The translations under genes and the position numbers were made by a program. From IMG/VR virus record IMGVR_UViG_648276650_000006: 7,032 nt of DNA; one strand, given 5' to 3'. Below the pieces are notes generated by a model. That model searched no databases. It was not told the origin of the DNA and was given only the letters and a program-made list of their open reading frames with translations. Origin of the DNA: a virus (lineage: Duplodnaviria; Heunggongvirae; Uroviricota; Caudoviricetes). Below, piece after piece: positions 1 to 7,032 of the stretch; the stretch's first letter is position 1, and every line of letters begins with the position of its first letter.

Positions 1-32
1 GCGGGGGCGGGGGGGGGGGGGGGGGGGGGGGG
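1..32. repeat. Homopolymeric poly-G tract at the window edge, probably a sequencing or assembly artefact
   Basis: Seen in sequence: GCGGGGGC followed by an uninterrupted run of about 24 G (9..32) at the extreme 5' end, with no coding or structural context. Confidence 0.5.
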
Positions 33-62
33 CTTTGGGAATATGCGGGTGTGGGGAGATTG

Positions 63-473
63 TCAGTAACCGGTTTGTACCTTATACAGCCGCAGGGTTT
101 TGCTGCCCCGAACAATCTTCACATACAGGGCATTATCTTCCGCGCTGCGTACAAAACCGGCCTTCACATCGCCCTTACAGTCACCACCATCGTAAGGAAC
201 ATTGATGCCGGTCTGGCGCACCAGGTCGATAATCCCGAAGCTTAAATCTTCACAGGCTGGGCCCGGCAGGTCCTGAATCAGGGCAAATTTATGGTCGTCG
301 CTGACACCGGTCAGTGAGCACATGGACGTATTGATGTCGTTTCCCTGGCACCAGTACTCCTGGCCGGGATTGTCTTTATCCATCAGACTTGCCGGAAGCT
401 GAGCGGCACCGGCACTGAAGGCGGCAAGTGACAGAATGAGGGCAGGTACAGCAGAGGTCATTATTTTCAGCAT
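63..473 (-). CDS. Small secreted/periplasmic 4-Cys protein with N-terminal signal peptide (YfjT/YkfB-like, tentative)
   Basis: 136-aa ORF. N-terminus MLKIMTSAVPALILSLAAFSAGAA-QLP has the n/h/c layout of a Sec signal peptide with an AxA-type cleavage site. AGGAAG Shine-Dalgarno lies 6 nt upstream of the ATG at 473. Mature part has 4 Cys, including W-C-x9-C. Family name is from recollection, not a search. Confidence 0.6.
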   Translation of the reverse strand: MLKIMTSAVPALILSLAAFSAGAAQLPASLMDKDNPGQEYWCQGNDINTSMCSLTGVSDDHKFALIQDLPGPACEDLSFGIIDLVRQTGINVPYDGGDCKGDVKAGFVRSAEDNALYVKIVRGSKTLRLYKVQTGY

Positions 474-539
474 GGTCTTCTTCCTGAATTAATCCAGCCC
501 GCTGTCGGGCAAAATGAGAGAGGTTGATATCGGGTGTTA

Positions 540-977
540 TCAGAAGCGCCGGTAGCGAAACAGCTCTTTGCCCTGGTAAAGTGCCACCAGGTCGTCATAT
601 TCCGGCTTCTTCTGGTTGGGTTTAAAGGTCACTACCGTGCCCGGACGGCACAGGTCTTTTACGGTGAGTCCGTATTTCTTGTCCGGAGTAATGGTGAATC
701 CTTTCGACACATCGTTGCGCATGATAGTTATCCAGCCCCACAGGCCGCCTTCGCAGTCTTTAAAGGGTGCGGAACGCACCGTGACCATCCCGCCCAGGCG
801 GTCAACAGACATGGCTTCGCATTTTCCGGTAACCTGACGATGCGCATCGCACCAGAAAATGTTCCCGTTGTTGTCATTAACTACAGCAGGGAGGGTCCGG
901 TTATAAGGCTGAGCCTGAGCGCCCACACAGAGCAGAAGGCTGCCGGTAATACCCAGTACTTTAATCAGTGTTTTCAT
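540..977 (-). CDS. Small secreted 4-Cys protein with signal peptide, paralogous to the 63..473 product (YfjS/YafY-like, tentative)
   Basis: The track ORF 540..1103 starts at a GTG and would overlap the upstream gene by 85 nt. The internal ATG at 975..977 has an AGGA 8 nt upstream, leaves a 41-nt intergenic gap, and gives MKTLIKVLGITGSLLLCVGAQA-QP, a typical signal peptide. Shares the W-C-x9-C pattern with the neighbouring ORF. Confidence 0.55.
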   Translation of the reverse strand: MKTLIKVLGITGSLLLCVGAQAQPYNRTLPAVVNDNNGNIFWCDAHRQVTGKCEAMSVDRLGGMVTVRSAPFKDCEGGLWGWITIMRNDVSKGFTITPDKKYGLTVKDLCRPGTVVTFKPNQKKPEYDDLVALYQGKELFRYRRF

Positions 978-1018
978 TACGTTGGTCCTAAACAGAGAAA
1001 GAATCAGGTAGCGGTCAT

Positions 1019-1555
1019 TCAGGCCCAGACAGTCAGGGCCAGCATCAAAAGCCATACCCAGAAGTAAGCCGGTTTCTGACCGAGAGTTTTCGCCCGCCGC
1101 CACAGATAGAACGGCACCAGCCAGGCCAGTTTGCCGAACGTGGTGGTGTCCACTCCGGCCTTACGCAGGCGTCGTTCATCGAGATACCCCAGAGCAATAT
1201 TGAGCAGCAGCGTGATAAACCAGTACTGCCCACCCGAGACGGCATCATATGCCTCGTCAAATGACATCCCGCTCAATCCTGCAGTCCACAACTCCAGCGC
1301 GTAGCCAATGAAGGGAGCAAATGCCAGCGTCCACACAACGCCACCCGGAATGCGGTTCCCCGGCAGCGCTGGTGGTGTGGTGCTCCGGAGCAGCGTCGAA
1401 GCCAGCGGAGTAGCGGAGACCGGCTGCCACTCTGCCATTCCCTGTCGCCACACCAGAGTGGATGCAGTCAGTTCACCGCGCATAATCAGGCTGGTGATGT
1501 CGTCTTCGGTCACATTGTCGTGGCGTATGCCATTTTTCTCGTAATGCCAGGTCAT
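1019..1555 (-). CDS. Membrane protein with N-terminal DUF4339 (GYF-like) domain and hydrophobic C-terminal half
   Basis: 178-aa ORF. N-terminus WHYEKNGIRHDNVTEDDITSLIMRGELTASTLVWRQGMAEWQP matches the DUF4339 pattern as I recall it (W-Y..G...GP/V..L..L...G.L...TLVW..GM..W.P). C-terminal half has several hydrophobic stretches (DUF2628-like by recollection). AAGGA Shine-Dalgarno about 6 nt upstream of the ATG at 1555; 25-nt gap to the upstream regulator stop. Confidence 0.6.
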   Translation of the reverse strand: MTWHYEKNGIRHDNVTEDDITSLIMRGELTASTLVWRQGMAEWQPVSATPLASTLLRSTTPPALPGNRIPGGVVWTLAFAPFIGYALELWTAGLSGMSFDEAYDAVSGGQYWFITLLLNIALGYLDERRLRKAGVDTTTFGKLAWLVPFYLWRRAKTLGQKPAYFWVWLLMLALTVWA

Positions 1556-1580
1556 TGTTTTTCCTTCTTAACAGAGGTAA

Positions 1581-2204
1581 TTAAATCAGTGTGTTGCCCG
1601 GCTCCTCCTCTGAGGGCCCAGGAGACAGGACTTCACGGATACAGCTGAAGTGCGGAAGGGCCCGGATAAAGCCCGCCTGTGTGGTTAACTGGCTGAGACG
1701 TTTTAGCGGGGTGAAAGTTGTATTGAGGACTGTCACCGCATGGATGGTCGCCAGTGGATGCACGGTGATATGCCCGTTAAGTTCACCGGTGAGGTACCAG
1801 CAGCCGTCGAGTGATATCAGGCGGTACGGGGCCAGTCCGTCACAGCGCTCTCCCTCAGCCAGCAGCAGTACCCGTTGGCAGGCGGTAATAGCACTGACGA
1901 GACGGTAGAACACCAGTGAGGTGGCCGGTGATATAGTCTGTGGCGGTTGCCACACCAGACAGGGCATCCCTCCTGCTGTGAGCAGCATGCCCGCCAGACG
2001 CCGGTCCAGCCCCGGAAAGATATCGGCCAGTCCGGACCGGTGAGCAAAGGTCAGCGCATCCAGCTCACCCTGTACGCCCCCACTGGTGCTGCGCAGGCGG
2101 CATTGCCCTCGTCGATACTCCAGGTCCAGATACATCAGCCGTTCGCGAAAATCCCGTCGCAGGGTACGGACTGACACACTAAACTCTGCAGCCAGCCGGG
2201 CCAT
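1581..2204 (-). CDS. yfjR: HTH (DeoR-type) + WYL-domain transcriptional regulator, YfjR-like; coordinates are the longest canonical-start ORF, which appears N-terminally truncated
   Basis: ORF contains the HTH recognition region LAAEFSVSVRTLRRDF and a literal WYL motif (LDGCWYLTGELNGH). The frame stays open 29 codons upstream (to 2291), encoding (I)TQAERRHDRLAVRLSLIISRLVAGETLN, which completes helix 1 of the HTH. That stretch has no ATG/GTG/TTG; it begins at an ATA codon (2289..2291) with GGAG 7 nt upstream. Symbol is by family recollection; paralogues in other islands are possible. Confidence 0.55.
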   Translation of the reverse strand: MARLAAEFSVSVRTLRRDFRERLMYLDLEYRRGQCRLRSTSGGVQGELDALTFAHRSGLADIFPGLDRRLAGMLLTAGGMPCLVWQPPQTISPATSLVFYRLVSAITACQRVLLLAEGERCDGLAPYRLISLDGCWYLTGELNGHITVHPLATIHAVTVLNTTFTPLKRLSQLTTQAGFIRALPHFSCIREVLSPGPSEEEPGNTLI

Positions 2205-2499
2205 GTTCAGCGTCTCACCGGCAACCAGGCGGCTGATTATCAGTGACAGCCTGACAGCCAGTCGGTCGTGACGGCGCTCTGCCTGTGTTATCTCAAATCT
2301 CCGTAATAATTAACTGACTGAATATGAAATGATTCTAAAGAGGGGGGCGGACAGGGTATGGACATGGAATGAACTATTTTTTATCTGCCACCGGAGGCAA
2401 GCCCAACGCGGCGCACCGTGAAATACGGTGATAAAACACTCAATCCAATGGAGGTAAAACGGACAGGGAGTGTCCTTTCCCAACATGCTGATAACAAGC

Positions 2500-3324
2500 T
2501 CAGGACTGAAACCCACTCAGCATCGCTTCCGCCATCACCCAGAGAGCCCGGTTGAGCTTCACATCGCCGTCGATACCACGCACGGCGCGGGTGTGTGTTC
2601 GCCCACCTTTTGCACTCCGGCCACTGAGCCCGCCCTTAATCAGGTTCTCCTGAATACGCTGGTATGTGGTCCACAGGTCATTGCTCTCATCCTGCCAGCG
2701 GCGTGGGGAGAGTATCTGAGGTGCTGTCACCGGCTGGTGGTCCTCACCAAAACGGTACGTCAGTGCAGCCTGTGCCAGAGCCTGTTGTGCAGGTGGCGGC
2801 AGCATCAGCGACTGCATGGCATCCCGCTTCTCTTCCACACGGTCAAAAATACCCAGCACTTCATACGCCCCCTCAATCACCTGACTCACGACATCTCCTT
2901 TGTGCGGTACCCGCACCTCGCCGAACGATTCACCGCAGACAAGCCCGTTCTGGCATACCGCACGGAATAATCCCGGTAACATCTGATACGAGCTGGTGCC
3001 GTCATGAGAATTGAGCAGAATGATTTCTGGGACTTGCTTGCCAGTAATTTGTCCCTCCCGGCGCAGACGTAACATATGCTTTGTATGCTCGCGACGCCCT
3101 GGGTCACGCACCCGGGTCTGGCAGGCAAAGAAAGGCTGAAAGCCTTCACACTGCAGATTTTCAAGAACGGTAATGGTTGGTATCCAGGTATACCGTGCGC
3201 TACGAGACGCATGCTTCTCCTCGCTGAAGACACTGGGCACTACACGAAACAGCTCTTCCTGGGTTAACGGACGGTCACGACGAATAAGGTTTGCTGCGCC
3301 AAAGCGCGAAGCCAGACGGGTCAT
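2500..3324 (-). CDS. yfjQ: DUF932-family protein (YfjQ/YafZ-like)
   Basis: 274-aa product from the second in-frame ATG (3322..3324), which has a perfect AGGAG 7 nt upstream; the track start at 3339 lacks an SD. N-terminus MTRLASRFGAANLIRRDRPLTQEELFRVVPSVF matches my recollection of YfjQ/YafZ proteins, and length is close to the ~273 aa I recall. Lies directly after a GTPase gene as in CP4-57-type islands. Confidence 0.6.
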   Translation of the reverse strand: MTRLASRFGAANLIRRDRPLTQEELFRVVPSVFSEEKHASRSARYTWIPTITVLENLQCEGFQPFFACQTRVRDPGRREHTKHMLRLRREGQITGKQVPEIILLNSHDGTSSYQMLPGLFRAVCQNGLVCGESFGEVRVPHKGDVVSQVIEGAYEVLGIFDRVEEKRDAMQSLMLPPPAQQALAQAALTYRFGEDHQPVTAPQILSPRRWQDESNDLWTTYQRIQENLIKGGLSGRSAKGGRTHTRAVRGIDGDVKLNRALWVMAEAMLSGFQS

Positions 3325-3350
3325 AAGCAGACTCCTCATGATGGAAAATT

Positions 3351-3387
3351 AAATACAAAAAGCCCCGCCGCAAAATCGCGGCAGGGC
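3351..3387 (-). terminator. Rho-independent terminator-like hairpin between the GTPase and DUF932 genes
   Basis: Minus-strand RNA: stem GCCCUGCCGC / loop / GCGGCGGGGC (10 bp, one mismatch; plus 3362..3387), followed 3' by UUUUUGUAUUU (plus-strand A-run 3351..3361). Begins about 30 nt after the GTPase stop and ends about 25 nt before the DUF932 start. Confidence 0.55.
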
Positions 3388-3418
3388 TCAGGAAACTACG
3401 GGTTAGAAGGGTTAATGT

Positions 3419-4282
3419 TCAGAAGAAGAAATTCCAGACTGCACGGGCGACTGATACCACGATGTCGCGCACAGACTGGATGACTGACCGAACCTGGGCC
3501 GGTATCAGGGGCATGGAACTTACTGTATCCAGTACCGAGCCGACCGTTTCACCAAAATCGTCACGGGCTTTTTTATTAACGGCATCGGTACGAAGTGGCG
3601 CACTGAGTTGTACTGCCACCTGACTACTGGCCTCCCGTGGCAAGCAACGAATCATCCGCTCAGCCATCATCCGCAGCCCCCACTGCAAACGTATCGACAC
3701 CGCACAGACAGGGTTTACAGGTTGGAACAACTCATGCAGCAGACAGATTTTGAGGCTGATATTTCGTTTCTGCTCTGTAGACAGCTTTTCACCACCGCAG
3801 GTGGGTTCAACCTTGTCAGACTGGCTGATAACAAACAACACCTTATGCCGGTATGCTTCACCAATCACCTGCCGGTAAAAATGTTCATCTACGGCCAGCG
3901 CCCGATCATCACCCTTAATCAACCACAGAACCAGATCCAGCTGGGGGAGCTGTTTACGGTACAGCGTGGCATACTCTGTATCCCGGCGCTCAGACTCCCC
4001 GACGCCGGGTAAATCCACCAGCGTCATAAAGCGCTTCCCCACTTGCAGGCGAAAGCGTAAGGGTTCGCGTGTGCAGGCGGTCACATCGCTGACCGGTGAA
4101 ATCTCACCGGTAAACAGGGCATTACATAAGCTGCTCTTGCCCGAGCCAGTTTTACCCATGATGCCAATCACCGGCTCATAGTCAGTAAGCTGATTTATCT
4201 GCTGCAGAATACGCTCTGATGCCCAGTGCGGCAGGTTAGAAAGCGAATGCTGCAGTGACTGTAAACCTTCAAATTGATTCAT
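3419..4282 (-). CDS. yfjP: P-loop GTPase of the YfjP/YkfA/YeeP family (50S ribosome-binding GTPase-like domain)
   Basis: 287-aa ORF. Walker A/G1 GIMGKTGSGKSS, G3-like DLPG. AGGAG Shine-Dalgarno 5 nt upstream of the ATG at 4280..4282. Length matches what I recall for YfjP/YkfA (287 aa). The yfjP versus ykfA assignment rests on the downstream DUF932 and WYL-regulator order and is not certain. Confidence 0.7.
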   Translation of the reverse strand: MNQFEGLQSLQHSLSNLPHWASERILQQINQLTDYEPVIGIMGKTGSGKSSLCNALFTGEISPVSDVTACTREPLRFRLQVGKRFMTLVDLPGVGESERRDTEYATLYRKQLPQLDLVLWLIKGDDRALAVDEHFYRQVIGEAYRHKVLFVISQSDKVEPTCGGEKLSTEQKRNISLKICLLHELFQPVNPVCAVSIRLQWGLRMMAERMIRCLPREASSQVAVQLSAPLRTDAVNKKARDDFGETVGSVLDTVSSMPLIPAQVRSVIQSVRDIVVSVARAVWNFFF

Positions 4283-4300
4283 TACTGCTCCTCTGAAATG

Positions 4301-4335
4301 AAAACAAAAAAGGCAAGACCGTGAGGTTCTGCCTT
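4301..4335 (-). terminator. Terminator-like hairpin plus U-tract in the leader immediately upstream of the GTPase gene
   Basis: Minus-strand RNA: about 11-bp stem (plus 4310..4320 pairing with 4325..4335; one mismatch, one wobble), loop GUGA, followed 3' by UUUUUUGUUUUC (plus A-run 4301..4311), then the AGGAG SD and ATG. It faces transcripts entering from the AT-rich cargo side. Confidence 0.5.
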
Positions 4336-4384
4336 TAATGAGGTATGTTCAGGGGAATGATATATATCTGAATATTTTTAGAAT

Positions 4385-4430
4385 GCTGATAGGCCGTTCT
4401 GTGCCAGGAGCGGACGTTGCGAACGCTTTG
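4385..4430. repeat. Left copy of a degenerate ~46-bp direct repeat (core GTGCCAGGAGCGGAC)
   Basis: Manual alignment to 5363..5408 at a constant offset of 978 bp: core 15-mer 14/15 identical, flanks 9/16 and 7/15, about 30/46 overall. Located in the divergent intergenic region upstream of the Toprim gene. Confidence 0.45.
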
Positions 4431-4570
4431 AGACTGATGATCATTTCAGATGTTAATTAATTAAAGGCATGGTAATGTTTAGGCTCTGTAGGGTAAATTT
4501 CCCGCAGTATTTTCGGTTATCAATAGCTTGTGGAGTTAACTCTCAGAGGGGGCAGTTAGTGGGAACAACA

Positions 4571-5269
4571 ATGGAGGACATCCAATACGAAGAAATGTTA
4601 AATGAGCTTCTATTCGAAAAAGTAATGAAGAATGAAGCAAAAAAACAATGCATTTACATTTTTGTCGAAGGTGAGTCTGAAGAACTTGCTTTTCAACCCT
4701 TACTTGAAGACTGTGGTATAGATTTCGATAAGCTTGGTATTGTAATTGCAAATTACAATGGGATTGGTAACTTAAAACACGCCATAAGACTTCTACATAA
4801 AACATTGAGCCATGATCGACCAATAATAGTAACGTATGATGATGATCATGAAGGAAAAATAATAAAGAAAATAAATAGCCCATTGATCACATACTTTAAA
4901 ATACCATTTAGCCCTGTAGTTTCTTATAATGATGGAACTTTAGGCGGAACATTTGAAGAAAGCTTTCCTAAAGATTGCTTTATAGAAGCTTGCTTTCAGC
5001 AAAATGTTATAGCTAGTTCTTTTTTATCAAAACGTAATGACTTTGAAAAAAAATTCAATCCAACTCAGCCATGGTTAGCTCAATTAGCACAATTCATTTC
5101 TTCCAATGGTGGGACTCCTAATTCTATAAATAAAACAAAATTAGCTGAAAACATGATGCTTTCAGTATCTCAGATACCTGAAACCTATAATGAGTTAGCA
5201 AAGTTAATCATTGATATTAGAAACAAGACCCCAATAAAACACCCTGAAAATGTAGATTTGAATTTGTAA
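4571..5269 (+). CDS. Standalone Toprim-domain protein, a putative nuclease with an OLD/AriB-like catalytic core
   Basis: 232 aa from the ATG at 4571, where G+C content drops; the track ORF begins at ATG 4469, which is an alternative start. Toprim signature seen directly: hydrophobic strand IYIFVEGESEE with E33, and IIVTYDDDHEGK with D90-x-D92-x-x-G95. No Walker A motif in this ORF or in any adjacent ORF. Markedly AT-rich with A/T-ending codons, unlike the backbone. Confidence 0.6.
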   Translation: MEDIQYEEMLNELLFEKVMKNEAKKQCIYIFVEGESEELAFQPLLEDCGIDFDKLGIVIANYNGIGNLKHAIRLLHKTLSHDRPIIVTYDDDHEGKIIKKINSPLITYFKIPFSPVVSYNDGTLGGTFEESFPKDCFIEACFQQNVIASSFLSKRNDFEKKFNPTQPWLAQLAQFISSNGGTPNSINKTKLAENMMLSVSQIPETYNELAKLIIDIRNKTPIKHPENVDLNL

Positions 5270-5362
5270 ATAATACTATTTATTTTCACGCACTGATTTT
5301 TCCGCGTTTGGTAGGTATTATCGCAACGTCCTATTTTCACTCATAGCTGCCCTACCTACCTT

Positions 5363-5408
5363 CTTGATGGGCAGCTTCGTGCCAGAAGCGGACATAGCAT
5401 CCGCTAAA
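5363..5408. repeat. Right copy of the degenerate ~46-bp direct repeat (core GTGCCAGAAGCGGAC)
   Basis: See the left copy at 4385..4430. This copy lies about 95 nt downstream of the Toprim gene stop and contains a small hairpin, AGCGGA / loop CATAGCA / TCCGCT. Confidence 0.45.
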
Positions 5409-5790
5409 GTAAAAGCAGGCGTTAATACCTGTGAGGGGTAAAAACGCGCATCGATTAACAAGAGTAACTGTAGTGATTCACAATCATGAAAAAATTTTCT
5501 TTATACAGAATAAGAAGCCATTTAATATGGTTAGAAGATTTAATTTAAGAGTAAATTATATATAATATATGGCTAATTAACTTATGTTAATGGAACTATA
5601 AAATGAAAACTTCAATGAGTTAATCGGTGGATTAAATAAATATATCGTTCCTGGACTTCAGAGAGATAAGACTAATGATTTTCAAAAATAGATTTCTGAA
5701 CAAGCAGTGAAAGTGTGGGGTGTTAACTAATACATCAAGATATACTTTAAACGGATAATATATAAAGTCACAATCAAAGGTAGATGAAAA

Positions 5791-6813
5791 ATGTTAGACT
5801 TAGAATATGCTGTAACTGAGCCTTTTTTAAATTACCATTTATTTCATGAAGGATTAAATACGAAGGTTAAGGTTTTAACCTCATCACTTAATCATGTGAT
5901 TGAATATTTATTGACGCCAGGCAATGAAAATAAAATGAATGAGCTCATTAAGAAAACTGATAAATCTTGGCAATTCCCGCCGAATTTTTCACTTCCAAGC
6001 CCTCCAGTTGATGAATCAAATTTAAAAAATAAAACATCATCAAGAAGACTAGATAAGGAAGAGGATAATAATGAATTAGATTATCAATTAAAGAAAAAGG
6101 AATTAGCGCAAGAGATGTTGTATTGGTATGTAAGTGAAATGGCTATATTTGGCACTTTTTCTGCTTTGGATGATTGTATTGTCGATATTGATTCTTGGTT
6201 TTCAAGTTGGGCAATGTTTAATAACACTCAAGATAAAAAATCGGAATCAACCAGTAGTAACAAAATTGAAAGGTTATATGATTCACACGAATGGAACATG
6301 AAGAACATAAAGACATTCCTTCCGATTTATGAGTATTTTTCAGCAGTTAGAAATTCAATAGCTCATAGGCAATCCAAAGCATCTCATAAGTTATCAGAGA
6401 TATCAAAATCCCAAGAATTAAAAGAGTCAGTAGAGAGAAACTTCCCAAAAGGTAAACCATTAAGTGAATTTGAATATAATGAAGATATATTCATCTCTCC
6501 AAAAACGTCGTTGCTTTGTTCTCACATAATAAGATTAATTTTCGAAGATATCAATAAATACATCATAAAAAAAATGGGTATTGAAGGTATCATCTACATG
6601 TCATGCAAACTTGCATTTGAACCATCATCTTATAATGAAAGCAAAGTTGTTAACTTAGCTAGAAATAGATTGAACGAAATCGTTAGTGGTCGATATCATG
6701 TAATTATAAAAGGTGAGGATGAAGCCGTTAAGGTTGCTGAGTCACTTGGCATTTGGCGTGATTGCGCTAAATTTCATGCGAACAATATGAGGAAATTAGA
6801 TCCAAAATTCTAA
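5791..6813 (+). CDS. Hypothetical 340-aa protein with an R-x4-H (RNSIAH) HEPN-like motif; candidate Abi-like RNase
   Basis: Long uninterrupted AT-rich ORF. AAGG lies about 10 nt upstream of the ATG, a weak SD. No P-loop. The single motif R187-N-S-I-A-H192 (nt 6349..6366) has the RNxxAH form common in HEPN RNases, within a predicted helical stretch (FLPIYEYFSAVRNSIAHRQ). The CDS call is stronger than the functional call, which rests on one short motif. Confidence 0.6.
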   Translation: MLDLEYAVTEPFLNYHLFHEGLNTKVKVLTSSLNHVIEYLLTPGNENKMNELIKKTDKSWQFPPNFSLPSPPVDESNLKNKTSSRRLDKEEDNNELDYQLKKKELAQEMLYWYVSEMAIFGTFSALDDCIVDIDSWFSSWAMFNNTQDKKSESTSSNKIERLYDSHEWNMKNIKTFLPIYEYFSAVRNSIAHRQSKASHKLSEISKSQELKESVERNFPKGKPLSEFEYNEDIFISPKTSLLCSHIIRLIFEDINKYIIKKMGIEGIIYMSCKLAFEPSSYNESKVVNLARNRLNEIVSGRYHVIIKGEDEAVKVAESLGIWRDCAKFHANNMRKLDPKF

Positions 6814-6899
6814 CCTTATCGCGAAATAATTTATGTGCCAGAGTTTCCCTGGCGCTATTGCGATAATGTTTTATTGGCCTATGCCTCGCAGATTAACAC

Positions 6900-6928
6900 A
6901 GGGCGATGTTAAAAGTCGCCCTTTATAG
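6900..6928 (+). terminator. Candidate intrinsic terminator downstream of the HEPN-like gene
   Basis: Plus strand: stem (A)GGGCGA / 9-nt loop / TCGCCC(T), followed by TTTATAG; about 90 nt after the stop at 6813. Short stem and weak U-tract. Confidence 0.35.
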
Positions 6929-7032
6929 TCAGAACAGATTCCTACTTCCGCTCCTCGCTCATAGCAGACCTTCAGATCCGGGAGGGTGTCCGCTTAGTGC
7001 TGTGAGTTCAACTGATGGACGCAACACACTTA

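Follow-up and report, generated by a model that had tools for sequence, protein, structure and literature searches.

A YfjR-like wHTH-WYL regulator gene with ATA in place of the family's ATG start codon in a widely spread Enterobacterales island lineage

The closest described counterpart of the regulator analysed here is YfjR of Escherichia coli K-12 (b2634), encoded in the cryptic prophage CP4-57. The two loci share the order of GTPase (yfjP-like), DUF932 (yfjQ-like) and regulator genes, as well as upstream TGTCC motifs and the sequence TTCAGTCAGTTAA. The proteins are 57% identical over 233 aligned residues, with residues 2-28 identical. K-12 yfjR differs in its ATG start, in its product of 233 aa and in its own downstream genes, ypjK, yfjS and yfjT. 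The regulatory role of YfjR is thinly documented even in K-12: a gSELEX summary table gives the "yfjR operon" as its target (PMC8249747), and no DNA binding was seen for it by ChIP-exo (PMC8464067).

With respect to fold, the best matches to a model of the protein are the wHTH-WYL regulators of solved structure BrxR, CapW, DriD and PafBC (Foldseek E values of 1e-5 to 1e-3, probability 1.0). In the model, the protein resembles these regulators in that a winged HTH at the N-terminus precedes a beta-rich WYL-like domain. It differs from them in sequence, with identities of only 12-18% and global TM-scores of 0.25-0.37, and in length, the described proteins having approximately 280-330 aa versus 236 aa here, or 45-90 residues more.

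With respect to the start codon, infC has a natural AUU start that is conserved among orthologues, and is autoregulated through IF3. The locus described here is like infC-type starts in that a near-cognate AUN codon stands behind a good Shine-Dalgarno sequence (here GGAG with a 7-nt spacer), but its ATA is confined to one near-clonal allele. It is also like hypomorphic or null start-loss alleles of the Met1Ile type, the third base of ATG having undergone one transition and the gene having no further lesion. It is, however, no rare private variant, being fixed in an island lineage found on hundreds of contigs and in several genera.

The window, i.e., the whole stretch of DNA that was analysed, is 7,032 nt long. 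The features considered below are as follows:

1581..2291, minus strand: frame of the YfjR-like wHTH-WYL regulator, 236 codons plus stop, with the start codon as its sole defect.
2289..2291, minus strand: ATA at the family's ATG start position, from the sequence, the orthologue alignment and the PGAP CDS start.
2299..2302, minus strand: Shine-Dalgarno sequence GGAG, with a 7-nt spacer to the ATA and an anti-SD duplex of -6.6 kcal/mol.
2202..2204, minus strand: internal ATG, codon 30, the first canonical start, giving a 207-aa product and lying at the N-terminus of HTH helix 2.
2310..2312, minus strand: in-frame TAA, the upstream limit of the open frame that contains the ATA, from the translation.
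2292..2499, minus strand: intergenic leader/promoter region and candidate operator, with TGTCC repeats and a TAGAAT -10-like hexamer.
1019..1555, minus strand: GYF_2/DUF4339 gene, starting 25 nt past the regulator stop codon.

The ORF list contains only a 207-aa, ATG-initiated ORF for the regulator locus. The initial annotation had instead drawn attention to the upstream extension of this frame, and its coordinates for the ATG, the ATA and the GGAG with its 7-nt spacer all hold on the minus strand. A codon-by-codon check detected no in-frame ATG, GTG or TTG between the TAA (2312..2310) and the ATG at 2204, in agreement with the claim that the extension lacks these codons; the ATG at 2204..2202 is the first canonical start. 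The ATA and the internal ATG are separated by 29 codons in the same frame, and the 28 sense codons after the ATA encode TQAERRHDRLAVRLSLIISRLVAGETLN. The description of the frame as open for 29 codons upstream is accurate for the distance from ATA to ATG only: the frame is really open for 35 codons, with LLRRFE preceding the ATA. The extended product of 236 aa fits the length expected from K-12 YfjR (233 aa), as had been proposed.

We evaluated the potential start sites by the energy of the duplex with the anti-Shine-Dalgarno sequence. The in-frame near-cognate codons between the TAA and the ATG were CTG (five), ATA (one) and ATC (one), all of poor SD complementarity, with duplex energies of +0.6 to -3.6 kcal/mol. 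At the ATA of 2289..2291, the duplex was -6.6 kcal/mol, compared to -5.7 to -8.9 kcal/mol at neighbouring genes, and only ~8% of the window positions sampled attained -6 kcal/mol. At the internal ATG, the duplex was -3.6 kcal/mol, a level reached by approximately one quarter of the sampled positions. The sequence CGGAG is kept across the close subfamily, and GGAG also precedes the start in K-12 and in E. coli HH45.

The start column was examined in orthologues. A megablast search of the regulator gene against 5,426 complete E. coli genomes matched LD93-1 (100%), the NN5 orthologue (93%) and HH45 (88%), in addition to K-12 yfjR. In DNA alignments, the column occupied by the ATA is ATG in NN5, K-12, PS10-3 and 2273-PO3 and GTG in HH45, and the flanking bases are conserved. 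Two ENA metagenome contigs also have ATG at this column, as do 15 of 17 loci from GTDB species representatives, the other two being the identical ATA allele; the ATG-type representatives span Yersinia, Serratia, Franconibacter, Kluyvera, Lelliottia, Citrobacter, Xenorhabdus and others. At the protein level, the regulator is 95% identical to the NN5 orthologue, and the invariant residues 2-28 are shared by all three proteins when K-12 YfjR is included. In a family alignment of 36 sequences, all 35 homologues start with Met at the ATA column and hardly vary over the following 27 residues, while residue 30 is variously M, V, L or I. A canonical start is absent from the conserved N-terminus, and ATA stands where YfjR-family relatives carry ATG or GTG, a coincidence that goes beyond chance. 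The orthologue alignment that the initial annotation had proposed as a check was run: orthologue starts coincide with 2289..2291 and not with the M at 2204. Its suggestion of a mutated ancestral ATG is likewise borne out in that all inspected orthologues start there, with ATG except for one GTG. Based on these alignments, the gene most likely carries an ordinary start-codon point mutation, G-to-A on the coding strand at window base 2289.

The extension contributes to a DNA-binding domain. The Pfam HTH_DeoR profile matched residues 14-50 of the long form with an E value of 4.7e-4 and 20.3 bits, just missing the cut-off of 21; in the 207-aa form, the match is limited to profile positions 19-37. 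An AlphaFold2 model computed from the family alignment (mean pLDDT of 81) has a three-helix bundle and a beta wing in residues 3-66, followed by the beta-rich WYL-like domain. Specifically, helix 1 comprises residues 3-23, a strand residues 27-29, helix 2 residues 30-36, the recognition helix residues 41-51 and the wing residues 57-66. At the C-terminal end, where regulators of the BrxR/CapW/DriD/PafBC type have a WCX dimerisation domain, the model has short helices only after residue 197, and residues 227-236 are disordered. The earlier proposals that the extension encodes the first helix of the HTH and that the short ORF begins inside this domain both agree with these results: the HTH_DeoR match is halved in the short form, and M30 opens helix 2. 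In the model, a start at M30 would therefore entail the loss of helix 1 and of the first strand of the wHTH.

Assignment to the WYL class, defined by a ligand-sensing domain of Sm/SH3-like beta fold, draws on several comparisons. The PADLOC WYL profile matched residues 10-201 with an E value of 1.9e-17, and the Pfam WYL profile scored below threshold for the regulator sequence alone (13.2 versus 21.8 bits). The homologues annotated as WYL-domain or DeoR-family regulators number in the hundreds, and many homologues have precomputed PF13280 matches. A sequence search of the PDB with the regulator gave no match, and no NCBIfam family matched it. In Foldseek searches of the PDB, matches with E < 1e-3 were solely wHTH-WYL regulators (PafBC, DriD, BrxR and CapW). 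By homology and synteny, the gene belongs to the YfjR family, with a predicted wHTH-WYL architecture. A separate substitution, G38S (codon 38, window 2180-2178, minus strand), lies in the turn between HTH helices 2 and 3 and is private to the ATA lineage; residue 38 is Gly in 5/5 ATG alleles compared, in the closest cluster members and in most of the 35 homologues, with Asp or Ala in a few.

The ATA was present in 14 of 14 independent assemblies of the allele (loci L001, L005-L014, L022, L029 and L036), which were drawn from NCBI, ENA and JGI and cover several genera and at least six flanking contexts. Carriers include E. coli LD93-1 and HH107, Enterobacter sp. Bisph1 and Cedecea davisae. The two GTDB representatives with ATA, among 17 loci, are Enterobacter sp. 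Bisph1 (L022) and C. davisae DSM 4568, both identical to the window gene over the stretch compared. Among the 5,426 complete E. coli genomes, 28 carry the start region of the subfamily, and two of these have the ATA allele. An exact look-up of the 207-aa product returned 784 blocks of a public assembly collection, with ATA in all four distinct places listed, and the 236-aa version beginning with M returned 309 blocks, with ATA in all five places listed. Because the listed places are all ATA, the 236-aa "M" entries are PGAP-style calls from ATA and not ATG alleles. RefSeq/PGAP starts the CDS at the ATA in LD93-1 and HH107 (WP_024198336.1, "hypothetical protein"). In the cluster listing, the 207-aa form is on 380 contigs and the 236-aa form on 306; ATG alleles are on 25, 47 and 10 contigs among the 40 of 1,236 cluster members read. 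Among the source names in the cluster are Hafnia paralvei, Citrobacter freundii and "MULTISPECIES Enterobacterales". Far from being a private lesion, the allele has become fixed in a mobile island lineage that has spread widely.

The ATA copies differ from the window gene at 0-1 of 711 nt, the single difference being synonymous, and they share a block that is 99.6-99.95% identical to window positions 29..~4418 (4.4 kb). ATG-bearing islands have only ~90% identity over the same block, and the nearest ATG alleles differ from the ATA gene at 40 or more of 711 nt. Matches with few mismatches each extend over window positions 29-4418 in LD93-1, 1653-6975 in Enterobacter sp. Bisph1 and 29-5291 in CP083258.1. 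Past ~4418, the cargo varies by locus and includes an acetyltransferase, a LysR regulator, a cation-diffusion transporter, an OLD-like TOPRIM protein, HupE/UreJ and others. No ATG counterpart identical at all other positions was found, 5/5 inspected "236-aa M" places being ATA, and a scan of JGI metagenomes for diverged ATA, ATC or ATT lineages gave one contig only, with the identical allele. Since the ATA copies share a near-identical block and the ATG islands are only ~90% identical to it, the simplest reading of these comparisons is one mutational event in one island lineage, then recent, broad horizontal spread across several Enterobacterales genera.

Selection on the allele was evaluated from substitution patterns. 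The dN/dS was 0.09-0.11 between ATA and ATG alleles and 0.08-0.11 among ATG alleles. The changes private to the window lineage were eight synonymous and four non-synonymous (G38S among the latter), a ratio within the range of the other alleles, and no frameshift or stop was found in 14/14 ATA copies. Pairwise and private-substitution counts gave no signal of relaxed constraint, at a power that is low as the ATA copies are nearly identical. The unrelaxed dN/dS may reflect recent mutation only; because the ATA copies are near-identical, a recent loss and a working start would yield indistinguishable values. Enterobacter sp. Bisph1 holds two copies of the gene, the ATA allele (L022) and an ATG paralogue that differs at 48 of 711 nt (L034). 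As the family's N-terminal HTH hardly varies, ATG paralogues elsewhere in a genome could supply the function of the ATA copy in trans, making the allele neutral. In E. coli HH45 (L003), the GTG-started regulator is also frameshifted, and the GTPase, DUF932 and antirestriction genes next to it are likewise pseudogenes; HH45 has a decaying island, whereas the ATA-bearing block is fully intact.

Published reporter data bear on the output of an AUA start. In a T7-sfGFP construct, initiation at AUA, AUC, AUU and CUG was 1-2% of that at AUG, and in NanoLuc constructs it was 0.02-3% (bioRxiv 10.1101/063800); AUA reporter efficiencies vary with context. Initiation at AUU and AUA is impeded by IF3 (PMC9723500). 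At this locus, a single G-to-A transition most likely converted the ancestral ATG to ATA, and the ribosome-binding site and the 236-codon frame are otherwise intact. Residual translation would most likely still begin at the ATA, with initiator tRNA and an fMet N-terminus, since this is the sole site with a usable Shine-Dalgarno sequence. Rejected by IF3, AUA would be expected to work at ~0.02-3% of AUG and so to yield very little regulator. Initiation at the internal ATG would be weak and would yield a DNA-binding domain devoid of its helix 1 and first strand. Given the published range for AUA initiation, the allele probably amounts to a strong hypomorph that is nearly null, the expression level being inferred from those reporters. 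As a whole, an explanation that combines a start-codon transition, an intact Shine-Dalgarno sequence, a single spread and a strong hypomorph with residual AUA-made protein appears to us likely. As a mutational event, this is routine and of a familiar kind, and the ATA start is already implicit in the RefSeq annotation.

We weighed three other explanations. An artefact of sequencing or assembly that conceals a true ATG, an escape route left by the initial annotation, has no observation in its favour and is refuted by the recurrence of the same ATA in 14 independent assemblies from three archives, several genera and at least six flanking contexts; we regard an error as vanishingly improbable. 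Initiation at the internal ATG (2204..2202), yielding a 207-aa free WYL sensor or dominant-negative partner, would make use of the sole canonical start, and the corresponding ORF is called on 380 contigs by Prodigal-type programs. Its Shine-Dalgarno duplex of -3.6 kcal/mol is weak, however, being matched by approximately one quarter of random positions, codon 30 varies between M, V, L and I among relatives and hence is no conserved alternative start, and the product loses helix 1 (3-23) and strand 27-29 of the wHTH. These points make a start at this ATG very unlikely.

Alternatively, the ATA may be a working, selectively maintained weak start for a regulator that is needed in few copies per cell. 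Negative autoregulation would then partly compensate for poor initiation, AUA would tie the level of regulator to IF3 as AUU does for infC, and the PGAP start would be right. Such a start is consistent with the intact, optimally spaced Shine-Dalgarno site, the unbroken frame in 14/14 copies, the unraised dN/dS, the PGAP call at ATA and the contig counts (380 and 306 versus 25, 47 and 10 for ATG alleles among the cluster members read). A common allele without a second lesion in any copy also fits low but sufficient expression. Against it, the non-AUG codon is not conserved: ATG or GTG stands at this position in all 15 ATG-type species representatives, in K-12 and in four further E. coli alleles, and the metagenome scan for ATA, ATC and ATT yielded one contig with the same allele. 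Moreover, the ATA copies are essentially identical, so the intact frame is uninformative on selection after the mutation. On balance, we consider a maintained weak start unlikely. That the ATA is in addition adaptive, either by keeping the downstream module or the adjacent cargo partly derepressed through a throttled regulator or by its tie to IF3, and so explains the spread of the island, seems to us distinctly doubtful. The module in question comprises the GYF-domain protein, antirestriction, RadC and toxin-antitoxin genes. If true, adaptation would explain the near-unchanged spread through E. coli, Enterobacter, Cedecea, Citrobacter and Hafnia and the occurrence on more contigs than ATG relatives among the cluster members read.

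The strong-hypomorph reading has a possible regulatory consequence, which depends on the leader. Four of the window's ten TGTCC sites are in the 208-nt leader, at 2349, 2360 and 2461 (minus strand) and 2471 (plus strand). One pair makes up a GGACA-N5-TGTCC palindrome (2475..2461), located directly past the stop codon of DUF932, and the other pair is arranged as a TGTCC-N6-TGTCC direct repeat (2364..2349), which the TAGAAT -10-like hexamer adjoins. The TGTCC motifs, TAGAAT and TTCAGTCAGTTAA are kept down to CP4-57 of K-12, though the regulators are only 57% identical. A strict sigma-70 promoter scan of 1500-2600 gave no match, and an inverted-repeat search of the leader with a seed of 6 detected none beyond the short TGTCC palindrome, which was spotted by eye. 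A G at -4 was considered as a compensatory leader change and rejected, as it also occurs in ATG alleles L015 and L016 and is not ATA-specific. The conserved TGTCC motifs of the leader together with the near-invariant HTH make autoregulation at these candidate sites plausible. The repeats are also the lead for an operator of the kind that regulators of the BrxR/CapW/DriD/PafBC type bind near their target genes under the control of a ligand such as ssDNA. If the regulator acts on the TGTCC repeats of its own operon, then with less of it the downstream island genes would be transcribed more strongly relative to the regulator. Derepression of the downstream co-oriented genes by the ATA allele, as suggested in the initial annotation, is thus a possible consequence, and the GYF_2/DUF4339 gene would be the first co-oriented gene affected if the regulator controls its own operon.

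The locus carries two annotations: a Prodigal-type product of 207 aa without a recognisable domain (380 contigs) and a PGAP "hypothetical protein" of 236 aa (306 contigs). Neither reveals that, compared with the entire family, the start codon has mutated. The locus amounts to a natural experiment, with a near-null or strongly throttled wHTH-WYL regulator allele in a successful, recently spread island lineage, and ATA/ATG pairs offer a route to learning what YfjR-type regulators control.

The gene order, read from annotated regions of LD93-1, HH107, NN5 and K-12, is GTPase, DUF932, regulator and co-oriented genes ending with antirestriction, RadC, DUF987 and YeeU/CbtA. For DUF932 (minus strand), the longest ORF starts at 3339 and encodes 279 aa, whereas the PGAP start is the ATG at 3324, giving 274 aa; the SD-duplex energy is -8.9 kcal/mol at 3324 versus +0.9 kcal/mol at 3339. 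A GC-rich hairpin followed by a T-run, GCCCTGCCGCGATTTTGCGGCGGGGCTTTTT, is located at ~3387-3357 (minus strand) between the GTPase and DUF932 genes. It resembles an intrinsic terminator, which suggests separate transcription units.

Searches with the regulator gene gave no match in phage records and, in plasmid records, distant relatives only, with no close ones. The distant family members reside on large conjugative plasmids (250-360 kb) from Citrobacter, Enterobacter, Salmonella, Klebsiella and Leclercia; these matches (H69-H78, e.g., NC_019360.1) have 81% nt identity and cover the N-terminal coding part only. In the window itself, the conserved island block stops near 4418, and the cargo at ~4418-7032 is low in GC (29-38%). 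This region may be a defence-type slot adjoining the WYL regulator. Positions 4469-5269 (plus strand) encode a stand-alone OLD-like TOPRIM protein (Pfam, 38 bits) with weak GajA-like PADLOC matches, and positions 5791-6813 (plus strand) encode a 340-aa protein with only weak HEPN/Csx1-like matches.
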